64,000 nucleotides of DNA, from NCBI GenBank assembly GCA_900757715.1, contig CAAEOZ010000090.1:2740-66739 (forward strand), read 5' to 3'. Shown here in pieces: positions 3,659 to 62,105 of this stretch. Every line of letters starts with the position of its first letter. The first letter of the stretch is position 1. The position numbers and the translations under genes were made by a program. The DNA comes from an uncultured Veillonella sp. (lineage in GTDB: Bacteria; Bacillota; Negativicutes; Veillonellales; Veillonellaceae). The notes beneath the pieces are model-generated. The model was given only the letters and a program-made list of their open reading frames with translations. It searched no databases and had not been told where the DNA came from.

Positions 3659-6127
3659 GTGGCAGACCAACAATGGTCCCACGGGAATATTCATCCCGTT
3701 CAGATTGATAAAGAAATGAAGAACGCGTATATCGATTATGCAATGTCTGTAATCGTTATGCGTGCGCTTCCAGATGTGCGCGATGGCTTGAAACCAGTAC
3801 ATCGTCGTATTTTGTATGCGATGCACGAAACAGGCATGACGCCAAATAAACCGTACAAGAAATCCGCTCGTATCGTCGGTGACGTACTCGGTAAGTATCA
3901 TCCACATGGTGATAGCTCCGTTTATGACGCGACGGTTCGTTTGGCGCAAGATTTCAATACGCGCTACCTCTTGGTTGACGGTCACGGTAACTTCGGTTCC
4001 ATCGACGGCGATAGTGCTGCTGCGATGCGTTATACCGAAGTACGTATGGCGAAGATTACAACAGAAATGCTTGCTGATATCGACAAGGAAACTGTTGATT
4101 TCATGCCGAACTATGATGAAAGCTTGCAAGAACCAACTGTATTGCCAGCGAAGATTCCAAATCTTCTCATCAATGGTTCCAGTGGTATCGCTGTAGGGAT
4201 GGCGACAAATATTCCACCACATAACCTTAACGAGGTATGTAATGGCCTAGCGATGCTCATCGACAATCCGGATGTGACTGTAGATGAATTGATGACGCAA
4301 ATCAAAGGTCCAGACTTCCCGACTGGAGCGCTCATTTTGGGCCGAGACGGCATCAAAAAAGCGTATTCCACAGGTCGTGGTAGCGTTAAAATGCGTGCTC
4401 GTGCAACCATCGAAGAGATGTCTAAAGGCAAGCATAAGATCGTAGTGACTGAGATTCCTTACCAAGTGAATAAGGCTCGCGTAATTGAAACAATTGCAAA
4501 CTTGAGCCGCGATAAGGTAATCGATGGCATTACAGCACTTCGCGATGAATCTGACCGCCAAGGTTTGCGCATCGTTATCGAATTGCGCGCCGATGTGCAA
4601 CCAGACATCGTACTTAATAAATTATATAAACACACTCAACTTCAAGAAACATTCGGCGTGATTATGCTAGCTCTCGTAGATGGACATCCTCGCGTATTGA
4701 ATTTGAAAGAAGTATTGGGTTACTACTTAGATCATCGTCTAGACGTTATCGTACGCCGTACTCAATTCGAGCTTAACAAAGCCGAAGCGCGTGCACACAT
4801 CTTAGAAGGCTTGTTGATTGCTCTCGACCATATCGATGAAGTGATTGCCACAATCCGTAGTTCTCAAACTGACGAAATTGCACGCAACGCATTAATGCAA
4901 AAATTCGGGCTTTCAGAGAAACAAGCGGTAGCCATCCTCGACATGCGTTTACGCCGTTTAACAGGATTGGAACGCGAGAAGATCGAAGACGAATACAAGG
5001 AATTGTTGGCATTGATCGAAGACTTGAAAGCTATCTTGGGTAGCGAAGCGCGTCAACGTCAAATCATCAAAGACGAACTCGATGATATGAAGAAAAAATA
5101 CGGCGACCCTCGCCGTTCTGAAATCACAATCGATACGTCCGACCTTGATGTAGAAGACCTCATCGCTGACGAAGAGATGGTGATTACCTTGACTAAACAA
5201 GGTTACATCAAACGGATGAACGCGAACGTATATCGCAACCAACATAAAGGCGGCGCTGGCGTTATCGGCATGAAGACGAAGGAAGACGATTATGTAACGC
5301 AAATTATGCATGTGCGGACCCATAATACATTGTTATTCTTCACATCTACAGGCCGTGCATATCGCCTCAAGGCATACGAAGTGCCGGAAGCAGGTTCCCG
5401 CAACTCTCGCGGTACCGCTATGGTTAACGTATTGCCACTCGCGGTAGGTGAATCCGTTACGACTATGATCGACCTTGAACGTGTCCATGAAGATGTAAAT
5501 TTATTTATGGTCACTGAATTTGGCGTTGTAAAACGTACGGCTATTGAAGAATACCGTAATATCCGTCGTTCTGGCCTCAATGCGATTAACCTCGACGAAG
5601 GCGATCGTTTGATTTCCGTTAACGTAACGACTGGCAATCAAGACATCTTGATTGGTACTAAGTTGGGTATCGCTATTCGCTTTAGCGAGCATGATGTGCG
5701 CCTTATGAAACGGGCGGCTCACGGTGTGCGTGGCATTAAATTGAATGCAGGCGACGTAGTTGTAGGTGCTGGTGTTCTTAATACTGATGAAAGTGAAGCA
5801 CAAGTGTTTACTATCTCTGAAGAAGGTTTTGGTAAACGCAATGATGCGGAAGCTTATACATTGCAAAAACGCGGTGGTAAAGGCTCTAAGAACTTCAAGA
5901 TTACGAATAAAACAGGCGACGTAGTGGCCGTAGAGGTTGTTCATAATGATGATGAAGTTATGCTTATTTCTGAGCAAGGTAAAATCATCCGCTTCAACAT
6001 GAATGACATCGCTGTGAAGAAGGGCAAAGCTATTTCTGGTGTGAAAACACAAAACCTCGACGAAGGCGATAAGGTAGCTAGTATTGCTGTTATTCCAGGC
6101 GCTGAAATCGAAGAAGAAGTAGAATAA
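3659..6127 (+). CDS. gyrA: DNA gyrase subunit A
   Basis: 822 aa with a GTG start; [55 protein letters not shown]. The active-site region, QRDR-like motif ([11 protein letters not shown]) and C-terminal beta-pinwheel repeats are present. Confidence 0.97.
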
Positions 6128-26936: not shown

Positions 26937-27018
26937 TTTGAATATCTATTTTTAGATATGTAGATTAAATTTATTTAAATACTTTATGTGACTATTTATA
27001 GTCTTAAGTCTTATTTGC

Positions 27019-27075
27019 AGGCACGTTCTCACGAGTGTAGTATACTTATACTAATGAGAACGTGCTTATTGTTGT
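27019..27075 (+). promoter_or_regulatory. leader hairpin with a conserved loop (tagtatacttatactaat) 15 nt upstream of the RBS of paralog 1
   Basis: 5' arm gcacgttctca pairs with 3' arm tgagaacgtgc, then cttattgttgttt and RBS gagagg. Compare 30731..30790. Confidence 0.5.
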
Positions 27076-27089
27076 TTGAGAGGTGTTAT

Positions 27090-28313
27090 ATGAAATTAAA
27101 AAGTATATTGTTGGGATTGGCTGTAGCGCTAGCTTTTACCATGCCTATTTATGCGGCGCAGTATACTGTTCCTGAAGGGCAACCACCTGTGCCAGGGGCT
27201 GATGCAAGTATTCCAGATAATGCGTATCAGAACTATCGTTATGGTGATATTCGTAAAGCGCCTAATTTTGAAATACAAGAGGTACTTAAGCTTAGATATA
27301 AAGAGATAGATGAGCTTGTTCGTAATCGCAAGATAAGTGTAGAAGATGCAGAAGCACTTAAGAAAGTAAATGTTAAGTATATGGATTTGACTTCTCATGA
27401 TTCTACGGTCATACTACTACATGAAGATGGCTTTAATGCTAAGATGACGGCACCTATTAGAGCTGTAACTGGGATATTTACTCCTTTAAAGTCTGATGGT
27501 ATTACGTCTTTTGCTGTAGACCGTTATGCACTTGCATCGCTTTCAGGTACTATAGTAACAACTGAGGACAACTATAATGAAAATAGCGAATTGCGTAAAG
27601 GTATGTTTATTTATCCTGGTTTTAAATCGGCCTATTGGAGCATAAGTGATGAATCAGTAAGAAATGATAGTCCTATGATTTTAGCTTATGTTACATTTGA
27701 TAGTGATTCTAATCGACATTATATTGTTGGATTAAGTAAATTTCACCAACCAAATGTAAAGGAACTAGAAACAGAAATGGCTAATGTCGTGATTCCCTCT
27801 ATCCAGCTGTTAGATGAATTAGCACGTATTAGTAATCTTGTTAAATGGGATAATATTACGTATCGCTTGCCTAAAGGGATGATGTTGAAAGCGGAAGAAA
27901 AGGTTGATTCTGAGTATAGTAGGCGAGTATATTATGGTCAAGGGTTAGAGTTAGTTATTGATAGAGGTCCTATTGTACATGATGATAGTGCAATGAGTGG
28001 ATACTTTAATCGTATTTTTGCGGATTACCTCTATGGTTCTTCATCACCTTTATTACGAGATATACCAATTCAATCGGCCATAGTCTGGAATAACGGTGTA
28101 CCTACATATCTTATGGATCAACATAATCCAGGTAAACAATCACATATATTCCAATTAATACAAGACAATCAGTATGAATATGATATGCATCTTACCTATG
28201 AGGATGGAAAGGCAAAATATAATCATATTGAACTACGCAATATAATGGAATATTTAGATTTTAAAAATGCTAAAGAGTTAAGAAGAAAAGCAGAAATAAA
28301 GACAAAGAAATAA
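27090..28313 (+). CDS. secreted protein, paralog family member 1 (unknown function)
   Basis: Signal peptide MKLKSILLGLAVALAFTMPIYA. Motifs VPEGQPPVPGADASIPDNAYQNYRY, VIPSIQLL, WDNITYRLPK, VWNNGVP and LRNIMEYLDF are shared with the 30808 and 33709c products. Confidence 0.75.
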   Translation: MKLKSILLGLAVALAFTMPIYAAQYTVPEGQPPVPGADASIPDNAYQNYRYGDIRKAPNFEIQEVLKLRYKEIDELVRNRKISVEDAEALKKVNVKYMDLTSHDSTVILLHEDGFNAKMTAPIRAVTGIFTPLKSDGITSFAVDRYALASLSGTIVTTEDNYNENSELRKGMFIYPGFKSAYWSISDESVRNDSPMILAYVTFDSDSNRHYIVGLSKFHQPNVKELETEMANVVIPSIQLLDELARISNLVKWDNITYRLPKGMMLKAEEKVDSEYSRRVYYGQGLELVIDRGPIVHDDSAMSGYFNRIFADYLYGSSSPLLRDIPIQSAIVWNNGVPTYLMDQHNPGKQSHIFQLIQDNQYEYDMHLTYEDGKAKYNHIELRNIMEYLDFKNAKELRRKAEIKTKK

Positions 28314-28358: not shown

Positions 28359-28395
28359 CTACATTTATCTATATATTCCTATTATTCGTTCCTTA

Positions 28396-28424
28396 TTGTA
28401 TCGTATATTAGTTCGTTCTATAAT
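28396..28424 (+). promoter_or_regulatory. sigma-70-type promoter for the small toxin-like ORF (-35 ttgtat, 17-bp spacer, -10 tataat)
   Basis: Consensus-like -10 tataat at 28419-28424. Conserved in copy 3 (32621-32649). Confidence 0.5.
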
Positions 28425-28485
28425 AGACTTAGGATAGTTAGATGAGGTTGGGCCTCTCTTCGTCATCGAAGGGAGGGATAAGCCT

Positions 28486-28587
28486 ATGAGTGATTATGAA
28501 ATAATCATGCTCTTATTACAGGTAATAACGGTTGTTATTGCCTTTGGGGCATTAATAGCGCTTATTTGTCTCACAAAAGACAAATAG
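28486..28587 (+). CDS. 33-aa hydrophobic peptide, type I toxin-like (resembles Fst/holin-like-toxin small membrane peptides)
   Basis: MSDYEIIMLLLQVITVVIAFGALIALICLTKDK: one TM helix with a charged C-terminus. The SD gggagg is buried in the 5'-UTR hairpin cctctcttcg/cgaagggagg (28453-28476). Confidence 0.55.
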   Translation: MSDYEIIMLLLQVITVVIAFGALIALICLTKDK

Positions 28588-28687
28588 CCCTCCGTTGCCT
28601 AGTGTAACTAGATAACTGAAAGGCCATTTCCTAATCTTTTTTTTCAATTTCGAGATGCGCCTGACGTTTCGACTCGTCTGACTATCT
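28560..28687 (-). ncRNA. putative cis-antisense RNA (type I antitoxin candidate); 5' end inferred, 3' end unknown
   Basis: Minus-strand promoter: -35 TTGACG (28717-28722 revcomp), 17-bp spacer, -10 TATAAT (28694-28699 revcomp). It points into the 3' end of the peptide ORF and is conserved in all three copies. Confidence 0.4.
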
Positions 28688-28878
28688 TCTTATATTATAG
28701 TAAGGTTATTATATATCGTCAAATTATGATGAACACGTGTATGGCATACAGTTTGATGAGGGTATTGTAAAATGAGAAAACTCCTATTGGCTTTCACCGA
28801 TAGGAGTTTTTGGTTTTATAATTGTAATTTTATAGTACTTTTAGGCCTATTATTAAGTCACAGATTATAACAAACTAA

Positions 28879-30297: not shown

Positions 30298-30457
30298 ATG
30301 ACACCTCCAAAAATTTACACTATCTAGAGATTCATACTAAATCACCCTTACTACTTGCGGTGCATATATCAAGTATAGTTTAATTATCCATAAAAACTGG
30401 GGAAAATACAAAGAGGAGTTTTATTGCTTGTTGGAGAATATATATACATTGGGAATA

Positions 30458-30485
30458 AAAAAGCCCGTTATTAACGGGATTTTTG
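30458..30485. terminator. small bidirectional terminator hairpin (gcccgtta/taacgggat)
   Basis: aaaaagcccgtta ttaacggg atttttg. On the minus strand it would terminate the copy-2 antisense transcript. Confidence 0.5.
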
Positions 30486-30526
30486 GGGCATTAATAGCAC
30501 TTATTTGTCTCATAAAAGACAAATAG
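30483..30526 (+). pseudogene. 5'-truncated remnant of the type I toxin-like peptide ORF (copy 2)
   Basis: Only ...FGALIALICLIKDK* remains (tttggggcattaatagcacttatttgtctcataaaagacaaatag). The promoter, SD and N-terminus are missing. Confidence 0.5.
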
Positions 30527-30624
30527 CCCTTCGTTATCTTAGATGATTCGATAACTGAAAGGCCATTTCTCAAGATTTTCTGTTTTTAGAGATGCGCCTG
30601 ACGTTACGACTCGTCTGACTATCT
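30500..30624 (-). ncRNA. putative cis-antisense RNA, copy 2 (downstream conserved element retained)
   Basis: Minus-strand -35 TTGACG (30654-30659), 17-bp spacer, -10 TATAAT (30631-30636). The conserved block gatgcgcctgacgt...actcgtctgactatct is present. Confidence 0.4.
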
Positions 30625-30730
30625 ACCTATATTATAGGGATAAAGATTTATATCGTCAAATTGAGATGAACCTCATATATTAAATAGAAACAAACCTCAT
30701 GCATAGTGAAATATAAAGTTATAAATAATA

Positions 30731-30790
30731 GGCACAATCTTATTTGCATAGTATACTTATGCTAATAAGATTGTGCTTATTTATGTTGTA
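30731..30790 (+). promoter_or_regulatory. leader hairpin with the same conserved loop (tagtatacttatgctaat) upstream of paralog 2; arms covary relative to copy 1
   Basis: 5' arm gcacaatcttatt pairs with 3' arm aataagattgtgc, then cttatttatgttg and RBS gagaggg. Confidence 0.5.
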
Positions 30791-30807: not shown

Positions 30808-32067
30808 ATGTTACGTAAAAGTTTCCTACTGATGACAGCGATAGCTGCTTTCACCATGAATGCAAGCGCTGTGCAGATCGAAGTGCCAAAAGGGCAACCA
30901 CCTGTGCCTGGAGCGGATGCAAGTATTCCTGCTAATGCGTATGAGAATTATCGTCATGTTAATGAGGTAGCGGAGAAAAAAGCAGAGTCATATAGTCAAT
31001 TTGTAAAATCAAAACCTACAAATCCTCCATCTGCCTTTGATAAGCTGAATTTGGAACACCCTGGTTTTGCTAAGGCTTTGGAGCTTGCAGATTATTCGCA
31101 GTCTACAGTGGTATTGATTCATGAAGGAAATAAAAATATCAGGCTATCTGTACCAAATGTCAGCTTTCGCGGTGATGTTGTAGAGTCTCCATCTGGAAAA
31201 GAAGGTCCTTTTTTTGCTATTAGAAGCTTAAGTACATTTTTGGTAGTAGGCCCGCCTCATGGTAAAGCACTTGATGCATATTCTGAAAGTAAAGGAAAAT
31301 ATATGTATCCAGAATTAAGGAATGCATCTTGGAAGTTTATGTCGAACAGTGCTCGTGTGATGTATACGGAATTCACACCGAATGATACAAAAACTGCCTA
31401 TGGCATTACCTATGGTGGTTGGGTAAATACGGAAGATCCGTACCAAGATCAAGCACCTGAAGTGGTAATGAGTAATTATATCATTCCGTCCATAGAATCC
31501 TTAGCTGGATTAGATAACTATAGTCAGATTGAGCATTGGGACAATTTTAACTATCGTATTCCTAAGACGGCTAAGCTTGTGAGTGTATCTGTAGAAAATG
31601 AGATACATGAGGTGAGAACCTATGAGGATACAGGGGTTAAAATACGGGTAATACGTAGCGCAATCAGGAGTAAAGAGACAGATAACACGCTGATTAAGGT
31701 TCCAATAATATATTATTTACATAAATATAATGATTTGGAGACACCTACACAGTACGCCGTAGTGTGGAATAACGGAATTCCTGGTTCTTTAGTTGATGAC
31801 TATAAACCCAATCGTGAATCCTATCTTCGTCATGTTATGAAAGATTCTGTATACTATTACAGTTATCGCATTAATTATGATGAAAGTAAAACGTCTTATA
31901 CACATAAACAGCTAAGAGATATGATTGAATATGTGGGATTTGATGATGCGGCAAGATTACGAAAAGAGCCACAATGCCGAGAGAAAGGGTCATATAAGGA
32001 GAGACTCGAAAATAGCCCAGTATTTATCCCTTGGTATATGGAATGGGTTAAACTGTTGACTCAATAG
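30808..32067 (+). CDS. secreted protein, paralog family member 2
   Basis: Signal peptide MLRKSFLLMTAIAAFTMNASA, then VPKGQPPVPGADASIPANAYENYRH, IIPSIESL, WDNFNYRIPK, VVWNNGIPGSLVDD and LRDMIEYVGF. Confidence 0.75.
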   Translation: MLRKSFLLMTAIAAFTMNASAVQIEVPKGQPPVPGADASIPANAYENYRHVNEVAEKKAESYSQFVKSKPTNPPSAFDKLNLEHPGFAKALELADYSQSTVVLIHEGNKNIRLSVPNVSFRGDVVESPSGKEGPFFAIRSLSTFLVVGPPHGKALDAYSESKGKYMYPELRNASWKFMSNSARVMYTEFTPNDTKTAYGITYGGWVNTEDPYQDQAPEVVMSNYIIPSIESLAGLDNYSQIEHWDNFNYRIPKTAKLVSVSVENEIHEVRTYEDTGVKIRVIRSAIRSKETDNTLIKVPIIYYLHKYNDLETPTQYAVVWNNGIPGSLVDDYKPNRESYLRHVMKDSVYYYSYRINYDESKTSYTHKQLRDMIEYVGFDDAARLRKEPQCREKGSYKERLENSPVFIPWYMEWVKLLTQ

Positions 32068-32517: not shown

Positions 32518-32620
32518 ACTTCTATCAAATGTTAAATAGACTAAAAAGCCGAGCTACTATGTTGATTAAGTAGCTCGGCTTTTATTAGTTTATTCATATA
32601 TTTATATAATATGGTTTTTA

Positions 32621-32649
32621 TTGTATCGTATATTAGTTTGCTCTATAAT
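32621..32649 (+). promoter_or_regulatory. promoter of toxin-like ORF copy 3 (-35 ttgtat, 17-bp spacer, -10 tataat)
   Basis: Same sequence context as copy 1 (tattgtatcgtatattagtt.g.tctataatagacttaggatagt). Confidence 0.5.
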
Positions 32650-32708
32650 AGACTTAGGATAGTCAGACGAGGTTGGGCTTCTCTTCGTTTTTGAAGGGAG
32701 GGGTGCTT

Positions 32709-32837
32709 ATGAGTGGGTATAAAATTATTATGGTTATCCTTGGGATTTTATCAGTCATGATATCCTTTGGAGCACTTGTGGCGCTTATTTGTCTAGAAAT
32801 AGCAAAATGGCCCTTCGTTTCTTCGGAAATTAGATAA
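32709..32837 (+). CDS. 42-aa hydrophobic peptide, type I toxin-like (copy 3; C-terminally extended because the ancestral stop is lost)
   Basis: MSGYKIIMVILGILSVMISFGALVALICLEIAKWPFVSSEIR. Where copy 1 has tag, this copy reads tgg. The SD is sequestered by cttctcttc/gaagggagg (32678-32701). Confidence 0.5.
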   Translation: MSGYKIIMVILGILSVMISFGALVALICLEIAKWPFVSSEIR

Positions 32838-32908
32838 AACGAAAAGGCCATTTCTACATATTATTAGTTTGTGAGATGAGCCTGACGTCACTACTCGTCT
32901 GACTATCT
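32800..32908 (-). ncRNA. putative cis-antisense RNA, copy 3
   Basis: Minus-strand -35 TTGACG (32938-32943), 17-bp spacer, -10 TATAAT (32915-32920). Hairpin aaatggcccttcgtt/aacgaaaaggccattt at 32810-32858. Confidence 0.4.
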
Positions 32909-32966
32909 ACCTATATTATAGGGGTAAAGATTTATATCGTCAAATTGAGATAAACTGGAGGTCCTT

Positions 32967-33503
32967 ATGAAACCATTTGAAACGAAGGATTACAAAGCTT
33001 TTACCATATTCGAGGAGCGTTGGGCTCTTGTTACGGCCGGTACGCCTGATGATTTCAACACTTGTACGGTTAGTTGGGGCAGTATGGGCAACGTGTGGGG
33101 CCCGAATGGCGGCGATATGTCTACGGTGACGGTGTACATTCATCCAGCCCGCTATACGCAGGAATTTATGGCAAAATACGATACCTTTACCGTTAGTTTC
33201 TTCCCTGAAAGCTATCGCAAGGCGCTTGGTTACTTAGGATCTCATTCTGGTCGAGACGAAGATAAGGTAGCTAACTCTGGACTAACACCAGTTGCAGCAG
33301 GTGATGGCGTGACTTTCAAAGAAGCAGAGTTAACATTTGTATGTAAAAAGCTATATGAACATCAATTTGACGAATCTCATTTAGCAGCCCATGTAAAGGA
33401 ATATTATGCAGCGAATCCGTCCATGTATACCCAAGCTGGTAAGGATCGTTGGGAACCTCATTATATGTACATCGGCGAAGTAGTTGATGCCATAGAGGGC
33501 TAG
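32967..33503 (+). CDS. flavin reductase-like (FMN-binding split-barrel) family protein
   Basis: 178 aa; WALVTAGTPDDFNTCTVSWGSMGNVWGP is typical of flavin-reductase-like domain proteins. RBS ggagg. Confidence 0.7.
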   Translation: MKPFETKDYKAFTIFEERWALVTAGTPDDFNTCTVSWGSMGNVWGPNGGDMSTVTVYIHPARYTQEFMAKYDTFTVSFFPESYRKALGYLGSHSGRDEDKVANSGLTPVAAGDGVTFKEAELTFVCKKLYEHQFDESHLAAHVKEYYAANPSMYTQAGKDRWEPHYMYIGEVVDAIEG

Positions 33504-33708: not shown

Positions 33709-35043
33709 CTATGCTTCTGGAAATAGAACATGTTCTTGCATTTTAAAATTAGGATTATTGGTAGAATCAAAGAACTCAATCATATTCCGTAATTTTTGAA
33801 CTTCCTCAGCACTTAAAAAACTTGGATAGAAGATAGTATAAGTAAAACTATATATGCCATCATAGGAGTTAAAGTTTAGAATGTGATCATCCTTATTAGG
33901 TTCATAGCTGTGTATGGATAGACCAGGGATGTTATTGTTCCATACAACTGAGTAATTGATATAGTCTGATGCTGATGGATGGTAACGGTAAATATCCCAG
34001 AACGTATTTAAATCAGTTTTAAAATTGTAATGACCATTTATAACAAGTTCACGGGCATATGGGTTTTTAGGAACATTGTCAGTAGAAATAAAGAATGTTA
34101 TGTCTCCTTTTTTGTAGTATCTAATATCTTGGTGGTCGGTGCCCTTACTTTCACCTTCGTATATGGCGTCTTTTGGTACGCGGTATTGTACACCGTTTAA
34201 GCTTTCTATGCGTGAATATTGATTTAATTCATTTAGGTTTTGTACAGAGGGAAGCACATAATTAGCCAATAATTTATCTGTAGGAACCTTATTCAGAACG
34301 GGGTTGTTATCATAATAGACAAACCCTGCGTGATATAAGGGATGACGCATGTTATAGCCCTTAAATTTAAAATTTATTGTGTCGATGGTGAGCGTTGTTT
34401 TTTTACCGTTTTTAAGGTGTGGCATTTTCATGCTATCCCAAGTGCTGTAGGTAACAGTAGGATATGAAAATACAGTGCCTTTTATATCAGAAATGTGTTT
34501 TGCTGGATTACGTTTTGCCATGTCCTGAAAGAAATCACGAACATTCTTGTCGGTTAGTTTTTCATAAGCTATTTTTGTGTTACGCCAGTCATAGTCTTTG
34601 TAATCAGCATAGTCAATTTCTAAATTGAGACTTCCGTTATCGGTTAATACTCGATAGTCCTCAATGGTTCGACTTGGATTTTTGTAACGTCTTATATTAT
34701 AATCACTTTTTATGCCTGCAACGGGGAATGAAAGCCGAATTTGGTTGTATTGATCATGAATGGAGATGACTGTATTATGGTAATGTTGACCGCGATATAT
34801 AGAGGCTGCTTTAGCATACTTAATTTCGTTTTTACTAATACCGTTAGCCTTGTCAGTTGCTTTTAATGTTTCCACATAGTTTACTACATCCTTTTCAATA
34901 TCAGGGTTTGTGGCTTGGTAGTTTACGTAGGCATCCTTTGGAATCTTCGAATCTGCACCAGGGATATTAACATCGATAGCTCCTACTGGTGATAATATAG
35001 TGCTTATCATGAAAGCACCCGCTAATAATGGTAGTTTTGTCAT
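33709..35043 (-). CDS. secreted protein, paralog family member 3
   Basis: Signal peptide MTKLPLLAGAFMISTILSPVGA, then NIPGADSKIPKDAYVNYQ, VLPSVQNL, YSVVWNNNIPGLS and LRNMIEFFD. Confidence 0.75.
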   Translation of the reverse strand: MTKLPLLAGAFMISTILSPVGAIDVNIPGADSKIPKDAYVNYQATNPDIEKDVVNYVETLKATDKANGISKNEIKYAKAASIYRGQHYHNTVISIHDQYNQIRLSFPVAGIKSDYNIRRYKNPSRTIEDYRVLTDNGSLNLEIDYADYKDYDWRNTKIAYEKLTDKNVRDFFQDMAKRNPAKHISDIKGTVFSYPTVTYSTWDSMKMPHLKNGKKTTLTIDTINFKFKGYNMRHPLYHAGFVYYDNNPVLNKVPTDKLLANYVLPSVQNLNELNQYSRIESLNGVQYRVPKDAIYEGESKGTDHQDIRYYKKGDITFFISTDNVPKNPYARELVINGHYNFKTDLNTFWDIYRYHPSASDYINYSVVWNNNIPGLSIHSYEPNKDDHILNFNSYDGIYSFTYTIFYPSFLSAEEVQKLRNMIEFFDSTNNPNFKMQEHVLFPEA

Positions 35044-61682: not shown

Positions 61683-61883
61683 AATGCCTCCTCGTGATAG
61701 CACTTATTATATCATTAATTCTTAAATTCTTAACCCATGCATTTTAGTTATTACATATGATTTTCAGTTATAACTTTGATTTTGGCACTTATGATTAAAT
61801 GTTATGTTCATTGACTTTGTGCATATTGTTACACTATATTGGACTTAGAACAACGAATATAGAGAATAGGTGTCGTAAGACTT

Positions 61884-62012
61884 AATAGAGAAATCGGTAT
61901 AAGCCGATGCGGTCCCGCCACTGTAAGGATGAGCCTGCTTTCATATATGTCACTGGAGTAATCTGGGAAGGCGAAAGCGAGGTGATGATCCCGAGCCAGG
62001 AGAACTGCCTAT
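61884..62012 (+). promoter_or_regulatory. cobalamin (AdoCbl) riboswitch aptamer
   Basis: aatagagaaatcggtataagccgatgcggtcccgccactgtaagg matches the conserved core AATAGGGAA..GGTG.AA.TCC...GCGGTCCCGCCACTGTAA (B12 box GCCACTG). The 3' element gagccaggagaactgcc matches AGYCAGGA.ACCTGCC. Confidence 0.75.
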
Positions 62013-62105
62013 TTGATAATCACCGTTATGTACCTACGAGCGATAGGAAGGGGATTGGGGTATGCTGTCTACAGTATTTTTTAGTGTACCTTTCAATAAG
62101 AAACC

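Follow-up and report, generated by a model that had tools for sequence, protein, structure and literature searches.

To our knowledge, descriptions of type I toxin-antitoxin systems come almost exclusively from Enterobacteria, Helicobacter and monoderm Firmicutes. In the Gram-positive systems TxpA/RatA, BsrE-G-H, SprG/SprF and YonT, an overlap of the two genes at their 3′ ends is the rule (PMC8594479). In the bsrG mRNA of Bacillus subtilis, whose topology is known from experiments, nucleotides 1–35 at the 5′ end pair with nucleotides 232–262 at the 3′ end (helix P1), the Shine-Dalgarno (SD) sequence lies in a stem, and the stop codon lies in stem-loop SL3, with loop 3 being the first contact of the SR4 terminator loop (PMC3834814). 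Here we analyse a 5′-truncated unit, copy 2, which lies between two full units, copies 1 and 3, in a 64,000-nucleotide stretch of DNA from an uncultured Veillonella sp. (contig CAAEOZ010000090.1; hereafter the window). We favour the view that copy 2 is a toxin-less gene for an antitoxin small RNA (sRNA) and belongs to an unannotated Veillonella family of type I toxin-antitoxin-like loci with an architecture resembling that of bsrG/SR4; judged from sequence and profiles, this is probable, though well short of certain.

Several features of the full units are those of bsrG/SR4. As there, and as in bsrE/SR5 and bsrH/as-bsrH, the genes are convergent, with a predicted antitoxin RNA that is antisense to the 3′ part of the toxin mRNA. 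This mRNA would likewise be closed by a helix between its 5′ and 3′ parts, carry its SD sequence in the first stem-loop and encode a small hydrophobic peptide, and its stop codon lies at a stem-loop complementary to the terminator stem-loop of the antitoxin. The N-terminus of the Veillonella peptide (MS.YE..M) presumably resembles those of BsrG and TxpA, which we take as a lead only. Unlike SR4, the Veillonella sRNA would be about 109 rather than 183 nucleotides long, with a transcription start site (TSS) at the very point where the closing helix ends, and the toxin mRNA lacks the terminator stem-loop that follows the closing helix in bsrG. The host also differs, being a diderm Negativicute, and the units are chromosomal and multi-copy, include many toxin-less copies, and are not prophage-borne in the collections searched. 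The unit would therefore work like bsrG/SR4, yet it is not placed in the curated BsrG or Hol_Tox families.

Other type I systems share fewer of these features. As in txpA/ratA, the predicted antisense RNA overlaps the toxin transcript at the 3′ end and also covers the end of the open reading frame (ORF), a class (PMC8594479) for which decay-based control is expected; the Veillonella peptide, however, is shorter, and its sRNA has no sequence match in Rfam. Convergent transcription with an overlap at a terminator-type stem-loop is found in fst/RNAII (par of pAD1) and in SprA1/SprA1as. In par, direct repeats make the 5′ ends of the two RNAs complementary and mask the ribosome-binding site (RBS), whereas the Veillonella repeat is inverted and the 5′ ends are identical; nor does a shared bidirectional terminator end both RNAs, as it does in fst/RNAII. 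A par/Fst-like model is ruled out by the inverted repeat together with the pattern of G·U pairs, which places the helix on the plus-strand RNA (see below). Pairing of the sRNA with the RBS, as for SprA1as, was likewise ruled out: complementarity between the sRNA and the 5′ 115 nucleotides of the toxin mRNA was no better than in shuffles (z −1.7 to +0.9). In hok/Sok (the fbi-tac fold-back) and aapA/IsoA, the toxin mRNA in its full-length form is locked by a long-distance 5′–3′ interaction. There, the antisense RNA faces the 5′ region and activation comes with 3′ trimming, whereas the Veillonella sRNA covers the 3′ strand of the locking helix.

Units were collected by a right-block pattern scan of one genome per species and by a left-seeded scan of metagenomes (L numbers denote loci found). 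The former gave more than 117 matching stretches, essentially all from Veillonella (V. parvula, dispar, atypica, rogosae, tobetsuensis, hominis, infantium and many metagenome-assembled genomes), and the latter 119; plasmid and phage collections gave no match. From this spread we conclude that the window is Veillonella chromosomal DNA and the unit a genus-wide multi-copy element. Copy 2 matches positions 172–369 of a 391-column profile made from 164 full units (nhmmer, E = 3e-57). When the three units are aligned, its similarity to copies 1 and 3 is continuous, beginning at TTTGGGGCATTAATAGC, rather than restricted to a few short motifs. The window contains three occurrences of the block CCTGACGT..ACTCGTCTGACTATCT, compared with none in 100 shuffles; the left block, with promoter and leader, occurs only twice and is therefore missing from copy 2. 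The sequence-only reading had held that just the last 14 toxin codons survive, and this is what the remnant contains (TTT GGG GCA ... GAC AAA TAG, translated FGALIALICLIKDK*); its own start codon, SD sequence and promoter are all absent. A chimeric 32-codon ORF in frame with the remnant (30428–30526; TTG start, GAGGAG 9 nucleotides upstream) is probably due to chance: the orthologous sequence in L040 has an in-frame stop, and the exact sequence had no match in the protein collection.

The downstream half of copy 2 is preserved as that reading described it. The conserved block and the minus-strand TTGACG-17-TATAAT promoter are intact, with perfect hexamers; the promoter scores 11/12, and its occurrences in the three copies are the three best promoter-like sites of the 5-kb region. 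Sequence and profile together thus show that the toxin gene has been lost and a complete-looking gene for a predicted antisense RNA kept. The −10 element ends at 30631, the predicted TSS is at about 30624/30623, and the 3′ end would fall in a U-tract at about 30514–30518. The resulting RNA of 109 nucleotides would consist of a 5′ stem-loop, an A/U-rich linker and a terminator, and folds at −34.2 kcal/mol (z = −4.72 compared with shuffles). A small 5′ hairpin, GACG/CGUC, was considered and rejected as a conserved structure; changes in this block follow the mRNA helix partner instead.

The terminator has a 13-bp stem, and its U-tract (30513–30525) covers about the last four toxin codons. In full units the minus-strand reading of the stop-codon hairpin is the same kind of canonical terminator, GGCCUUUC...GAAGGGC then UAUUUGUCUUUU. 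It is biased towards the minus strand: in copy 2 it folds at −16.7 kcal/mol as minus-strand RNA compared with −11.1 as plus-strand RNA, 65 of 71 unique variants in the family are stabler in the minus sense, and its imperfect positions read as G·U in minus-strand RNA and as C·A in plus-strand RNA. The terminator is conserved in all copies. Both promoter hexamers are perfect in every one of 190 unique full units and in 88 of 98 toxin-less copies; the 17-nucleotide spacer varies. The last seven toxin codons (28560–28587, 30498–30525 and 32783–32810) also form a small conserved hairpin, UUUGUCU..AGACAAA, which is UUUGC..GCAAA in other subtypes, with at least one compensatory change between subtypes.

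A second hairpin, with the stem CCCGTTATTAACGGG, lies just upstream of the toxin remnant and is terminator-like on both strands. According to the sequence-only reading it had replaced the left part of the unit and would end an RNA of about 165 nucleotides. Promoter, leader and N-terminus have indeed been lost, but the terminator was not gained with their loss. In the same slot of V. parvula UMB0371 (L063) the same flank and hairpin are followed, after about 45 nucleotides, by an intact left promoter and leader; L093 has the same arrangement, and an intact left promoter likewise follows the hairpin in other slots (L117, L125, L163 and L200). Compensatory changes in the hairpin are seen in L040 (T-A to C-G) and L117 (C-G to T-A). 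The hairpin is therefore ancestral and older than the deletion. A deletion of about 210 bp would have removed the toxin promoter, the leader and the first 19 codons from a full unit, fusing the T-run 3′ of the older hairpin to the T-rich codons GCC TTT GGG, joined at codon 20. The same junction type occurs in L001, L069 and L032, and with a diverged flank in L040. The ORF of L063 was lost through a different, internal deletion and hence by an independent event in the same slot.

That copy 2 acquired a new terminator and makes an antisense RNA of about 165 nucleotides ending at this hairpin seems to us quite improbable. The hairpin does make a good minus-strand terminator (CCCGUUAAUAACGGG + CUUUUUUAUU), and a read-through RNA of 169 nucleotides folds well (z = −4.89). 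However, besides the age of the hairpin, the sRNA's own terminator with UAUUUGUCUUUU comes first on the transcript and is optimised for the minus strand in all copies, and toxin-less copies in other slots lack a second hairpin at a fixed distance. The conserved terminator and U-tract instead predict a main product of about 109 nucleotides. An RNA of about 167 nucleotides ending at the older hairpin would be read-through, for which the hairpin would serve as a back-up terminator before the symporter promoter region. Transcription of the symporter gene from the copy-2 promoter was rejected as two terminators intervene.

Full units carry a plus-strand promoter, TTGTAT-17-TATAAT, with a predicted transcript start near GGATAGT. 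A 10-bp hairpin (CCUCUCUUCG/CGAAGGGAGG; 98% paired, with one-sided changes only) buries the SD sequence 5′ of a 33-codon ORF, and 3′ of the ORF follow the stop-codon hairpin, a variable T-rich spacer and the nearly invariant block GAGATGNGCCTGACGNNNNNACTCGTCTGACTATCT. The peptide (MSDYEIIMLLLQVITVVIAFGALIALICLTKDK) is hydrophobic with a charged C-terminus. Among 170 full units we found 67 distinct peptides, nearly all of exactly 33 amino acids, with conservative I/L/V/M changes and with M1, S2, F20, G21, L23, I27, C28 and K33 invariant. The ORF is therefore real and under purifying selection.

The 5′ end of the toxin mRNA (GATAGTYAGAYGAG) and the end of the right block are reverse complements of each other, and the first 14–16 nucleotides of the mRNA pair with CUCGUCUGACUAUC some 240 nucleotides downstream. 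RNAalifold predicted this closing helix on 83 and on 148 unique units. In an alignment of 148 distinct sequences (A2), whose rows are related so that counts are not independent events, 99.4% of the cells of the 14-bp helix are paired, compared with 39–52% when the partner is slid by 1–3 columns. Four pairs show double changes (U-A to C-G in 8 sequences, G-C to A-U in 16, A-U to G-C in 10, and one more), and none of 500 shuffles reached the observed number of double changes or the covariation score. The imperfect cells comprise 222 G·U pairs, which would be A·C on the other strand, and 12 true mismatches, and the duplex is stabler in the plus sense in 43 of 45 combinations. In the metagenome units from the left-seeded scan the right block varies too, and both sides of the helix co-vary.

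Covariation and G·U bias together identify the closing helix as an RNA helix of the plus-strand transcript, and the toxin mRNA must therefore read through the stop-codon hairpin, at least to the end of the block. The conserved downstream block, taken earlier as the antisense half of the unit, is thus, by its covariation, also the plus-strand 3′ strand of a helix with the mRNA 5′ end. With a terminator optimised for the minus sense and a closing helix for the plus sense, the signatures argue for two convergent RNAs: a toxin mRNA of about 255 nucleotides or longer, and an sRNA of about 109 nucleotides that shares the first 14 nucleotides of the mRNA and is predicted to be fully complementary in cis to its 3′ 110 nucleotides or so. 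The predicted sRNA start sits exactly opposite the end of the closing helix. In copy 2 the equivalent of the 3′ strand is plus-strand 30610–30623 (CTCGTCTGACTATC), and its role in the helix is void there. The anatomy of the full unit, with a hydrophobic ORF, a sequestered SD sequence, a locking helix and a convergent predicted sRNA, is that of a type I toxin-antitoxin locus, in agreement with the interpretation first put forward. The features are collected in Table 1.

Table 1. Positions in the window of the three units and their parts
Feature	Position	Strand	Basis or detail
Copy 2, 5′-truncated unit	30481–30678	+	nhmmer with the 391-column model; alignment A1
Copy 2 toxin ORF remnant, 14 codons (FGALIALICLIKDK) + TAG	30482–30526	+	sequence, ORF list
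Copy 2 sRNA promoter	30631–30659	−	−35 TTGACG 30659–30654, 17-nt spacer, −10 TATAAT 30636–30631
Predicted antitoxin sRNA, ~109 nt	30516–30624	−	promoter position, fold, column conservation
5′ domain of the sRNA, nearly invariant (GAGATGCGCCTGACGTTACGACTCGTCTGACTATCT on the plus strand)	30589–30624	−	conservation
Predicted intrinsic terminator of the sRNA (GGCCUUUCAGUUAUC...GAUAACGAAGGGC then UAUUUGUCUUUU)	30518–30571	−	folding, family variants
Bidirectional terminator-like hairpin with A-run/T-run flanks	30458–30485		terminator scan, both strands; stem 30464–30478 (CCCGTT/AACGGG)
Copy 1, full unit	28372–28752	+	profile, sequence, promoter scan
Copy 1 toxin promoter	28396–28401 (TTGTAT), 28419–28424 (TATAAT)	+	sequence
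Copy 1 closing-helix strands	28433–28446 and 28673–28686	+	covariation
Copy 1 SD-sequestering hairpin	28453–28478	+	pairing across the family
Copy 1 toxin ORF, 33 aa	28486–28587	+	ORF list
Copy 1 sRNA promoter	28722–28694	−	promoter scan
Copy 3, full unit of another subtype	32597–32968	+	profile
Copy 3 toxin ORF, 42 aa	32709–32837	+	stop mutated from TAG to TGG at 32808–32810
Copy 3 sRNA promoter	32943–32915	−	promoter scan

These features suggest how the system may operate. Judging from the covariation, the toxin mRNA would start with GGAUAGU, pass the stop-codon hairpin and close on itself by pairing its 5′ end with the 3′ block, while its SD sequence would be locked in the 10-bp local hairpin, for which the family offers one-sided changes only. 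From the promoter, the strand-specific terminator and the conservation, the opposite strand would give the RNA of about 109 nucleotides. By analogy with SR4 and RatA, pairing of this RNA with the 3′ part of the mRNA would displace the mRNA 5′ end and make a long duplex, which would bring RNase III-type cleavage and decay, so that the 33-residue membrane peptide is not made. Folding predicts an SD sequence that remains buried with or without the mRNA 3′ part, and an unpaired probability of the mRNA 5′ end that would rise from 0.01–0.05 to about 0.5 once that part is unavailable.

Over the sRNA region copy 2 is identical to copy 1 at 91 of 112 positions and to copy 3 at 85 of 111, and within the 36-nucleotide 5′ domain of the sRNA at 35 and 32 of 36, respectively. 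The duplexes predicted between the copy-2 sRNA and the 3′ regions of the two toxin mRNAs have energies of −134.5 and −111 kcal/mol, compared with about −200 for the cis pairs. Since the 5′ domain is nearly identical in all copies, the copy-2 sRNA is probably able to pair with the copy-1 and copy-3 toxin mRNAs in trans and so add to the antitoxin pool, as the sequence-only reading had suggested; copy 2 itself is likely dispensable. A bolder proposal, which we offer as speculation and think rather unlikely as a whole, is that the sRNA mimics the toxin mRNA 5′ end and, being templated opposite the 3′ strand of the closing helix, acts by strand displacement, with the toxin-less copies forming a genus-wide trans antitoxin pool or anti-addiction network. 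The G·U wobbles present in most units would then keep the closing helix slightly weak and a perfectly matched sRNA would always win. The displacing 36-nucleotide domain is nearly invariant across subtypes and species, and the pool would neutralise the toxins of all paralogues, newly acquired ones among them.

Loss of the toxin gene has occurred many times in the genus. Counting unique sequences found with the full-unit profile, the right-seeded genome set contains 98 full units, 59 toxin-less right halves and 10 3′-truncated matches, and the left-seeded metagenome set 96, 29 and 10; about half of the 3′-truncated matches are left pieces of internal ORF deletions. About 52 junction classes are represented among the 88 unique toxin-less copies, which are either 5′-truncated or ORF-deleted. 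In L020/L022, L040, L120/L058, L063/L093, L173 and L219 an internal deletion has removed the ORF and left both promoters in place. Breakpoints are confined to model positions 143–210 (ATG at 115, stop at 214–216) and all destroy the ORF; 4 of 89 reach past the stop codon and cut the sRNA gene, and a single one removes the promoter and the 5′ helix strand yet leaves the SD sequence and ORF. A toxin-less copy is therefore a real but fairly ordinary feature, similar ones having arisen dozens of times. In L215 and L236, toxin-less sRNA genes lie directly 3′ of the right end of another unit, making tandem sRNA arrays.

Might copy 2 be a functionless pseudogene fragment, its RNA half intact through recent deletion or gene conversion but unselected? 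We think this unlikely, although part of the evidence points that way. Promoter-hexamer mutations occur in 10 of 98 toxin-less copies and in none of 190 full units, and deviation at conserved columns is 3.5 times commoner in toxin-less right halves (1.04%) than in full units (0.30%). Left remnants, which are presumably dead, show a similar relaxation (2.7% compared with 0.73%). Mosaics of subtypes are found among copies that share a slot (L040 and the window, for example), indicating recombination among copies, and some slots (L099, L013 and L140) hold small leftovers only. On the other hand, the junction classes almost never enter the sRNA gene (3 in model positions 211–283, compared with about 48 in the equally long 143–210), perfect promoter hexamers remain in 90% of toxin-less copies, whose column-by-column conservation profile is that of full units, and the junction type of copy 2 recurs at the four other loci named above.

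A toxin-less antitoxin gene is still the reading we prefer, but several points weigh against it. The relaxed constraint implies that selection on toxin-less copies is weak or absent, and gene conversion among the mosaic copies could mimic conservation. No terminator (hairpin and U-run) for the toxin mRNA was found 3′ of the closing helix, either in the consensus or in the window copies; the next terminators in the window belong to neighbouring genes. About 11 unique toxin-only alleles persist (among them L181/L190/L199, L187, L188, L172/L081, L042 and, with an IS200-like insertion, L014), which is awkward if the peptide is strongly toxic and the 3′ target needed. Finally, database membership is sub-threshold for Rfam BsrG (22.4 compared with 55 bits) and Pfam Hol_Tox (best E = 0.0056). 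The commonness of toxin-less and rarity of toxin-only copies is the asymmetry that a toxin-antitoxin pair predicts, yet it is not absolute. The earlier statement that toxin loss with retention of the antitoxin is exactly what selection should permit was therefore too strong, given these toxin-only alleles and the relaxed constraint on toxin-less sRNA genes. The toxin-less copies are at best weakly selected, and the evidence on their maintenance is mixed.

The persistence of toxin-only alleles could also mean that the system is not a toxin-antitoxin pair, but a benign membrane peptide (for signalling, as a transporter subunit or holin-like) under cis-antisense control, the loss of which is neutral. 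The peptide's annotation, which is only hypothetical, and its sub-threshold family matches would fit this as well. We nevertheless consider it a very doubtful explanation: the units have the full set of type I hallmarks (33-residue hydrophobic peptide, sequestered SD sequence, locking helix, convergent predicted sRNA, multiple copies), deletions of the promoter and 5′ helix strand that spare the SD sequence and ORF are very rare (1 of 89), and the sRNA promoter is invariant only where the ORF is intact. That the sRNA promoter would be indispensable only alongside an intact toxin gene fits an antitoxin needed next to its toxin and provides good indirect support for the antitoxin role.

In public databases the toxin peptides appear only as "hypothetical" or "uncharacterised", for example Vpar_1794. 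Our literature search found nothing on Veillonella type I systems or sRNA maps, and the T1TAdb paper mentions neither Veillonella nor Negativicutes (PMC8594479). At gathering thresholds Rfam reports nothing in the region. The BsrG model (RF01412) gives a weak full-length match to copy 1, below its gathering threshold and with many non-canonical pairs; other Rfam matches in E-value mode (sR51, PyrG leader and others) were dismissed as chance matches on neighbouring terminators. Hol_Tox (PF16935) matched 12 of 20 peptides at E < 1, all below the gathering threshold of 23.3 bits. NCBIfam gave no match to the toxin peptides, and a PDB profile search with them gave chance matches only.

The family would extend bsrG/SR4-like modules to Veillonella, a diderm genus of Firmicutes that is abundant in the human mouth and gut. 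Its main value lies in the large set of naturally occurring deletion alleles, and in covariation specific to each strand, by which both RNAs can be defined from sequence. Its hundreds of copies include about 50 deletions that destroyed the toxin gene independently, as well as a few toxin-only alleles, and amount to a natural mutagenesis series, usable for asking which RNA elements silence a type I toxin and whether toxin-less antitoxins work in trans. For annotation, it supplies a recurrent predicted sRNA gene of about 109 nucleotides and a 33-residue ORF that current pipelines miss.

Some observations concern individual units and their surroundings. The stop-codon change of copy 3 (A32809G) is also present in L001 and extends the peptide to 42 amino acids, whereas more than 60 relatives have 33. 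The mutation also affects the base of the sRNA terminator, and it may leave the peptide inactive or altered. Copy 3 adjoins the RBS of a flavin-reductase-like gene (32967–33503) with no terminator between them (32940–32970), and in L047 (2222–2300) a deletion joins the toxin promoter and leader directly to the RBS of this gene, which may therefore be read from the toxin promoter. Downstream of copy 2, a 13-bp hairpin (GCACAATCTTATT...AATAAGATTGTGC) with a T-run at 30732–30778, some 30 nucleotides 5′ of the gene start at 30808, could terminate plus-strand transcripts of the unit or attenuate the gene, and the toxin-only loci L187 and L181 retain it. Among the interrupted or flanked units, L014 (~5520–5800, minus orientation) has an IS200-like element (transposase start MSMNDVKSLSHSKWRCKYHIVFAPK) inserted in the unit's hairpin, L081 and L172 have a second inserted element, beginning GGGTTATAGGACAAAA, at the 3′ end of the toxin ORF, and in L187 a CRISPR-like array (repeat GTTTGAGAGTAGTGTAATTCTGTAAACCTCTAAAAC) lies just 5′ of the unit.

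The gene at 30808–32067 (+) is one of three paralogues, the others being at 26988–28313 (+) and 33709–35043 (−). They encode proteins of about 420–445 amino acids with signal-peptide-like N-termini and a shared motif, ..PEGQPPVPGADASIP.NAY.NY.., and match no Pfam or NCBIfam family. At many Veillonella loci toxin/sRNA units lie directly 3′ of such paralogues. Elsewhere in the window, and unrelated to the units, a cobalamin riboswitch (Rfam RF00174, 102.6 bits) is found at 61851–62026 (+).

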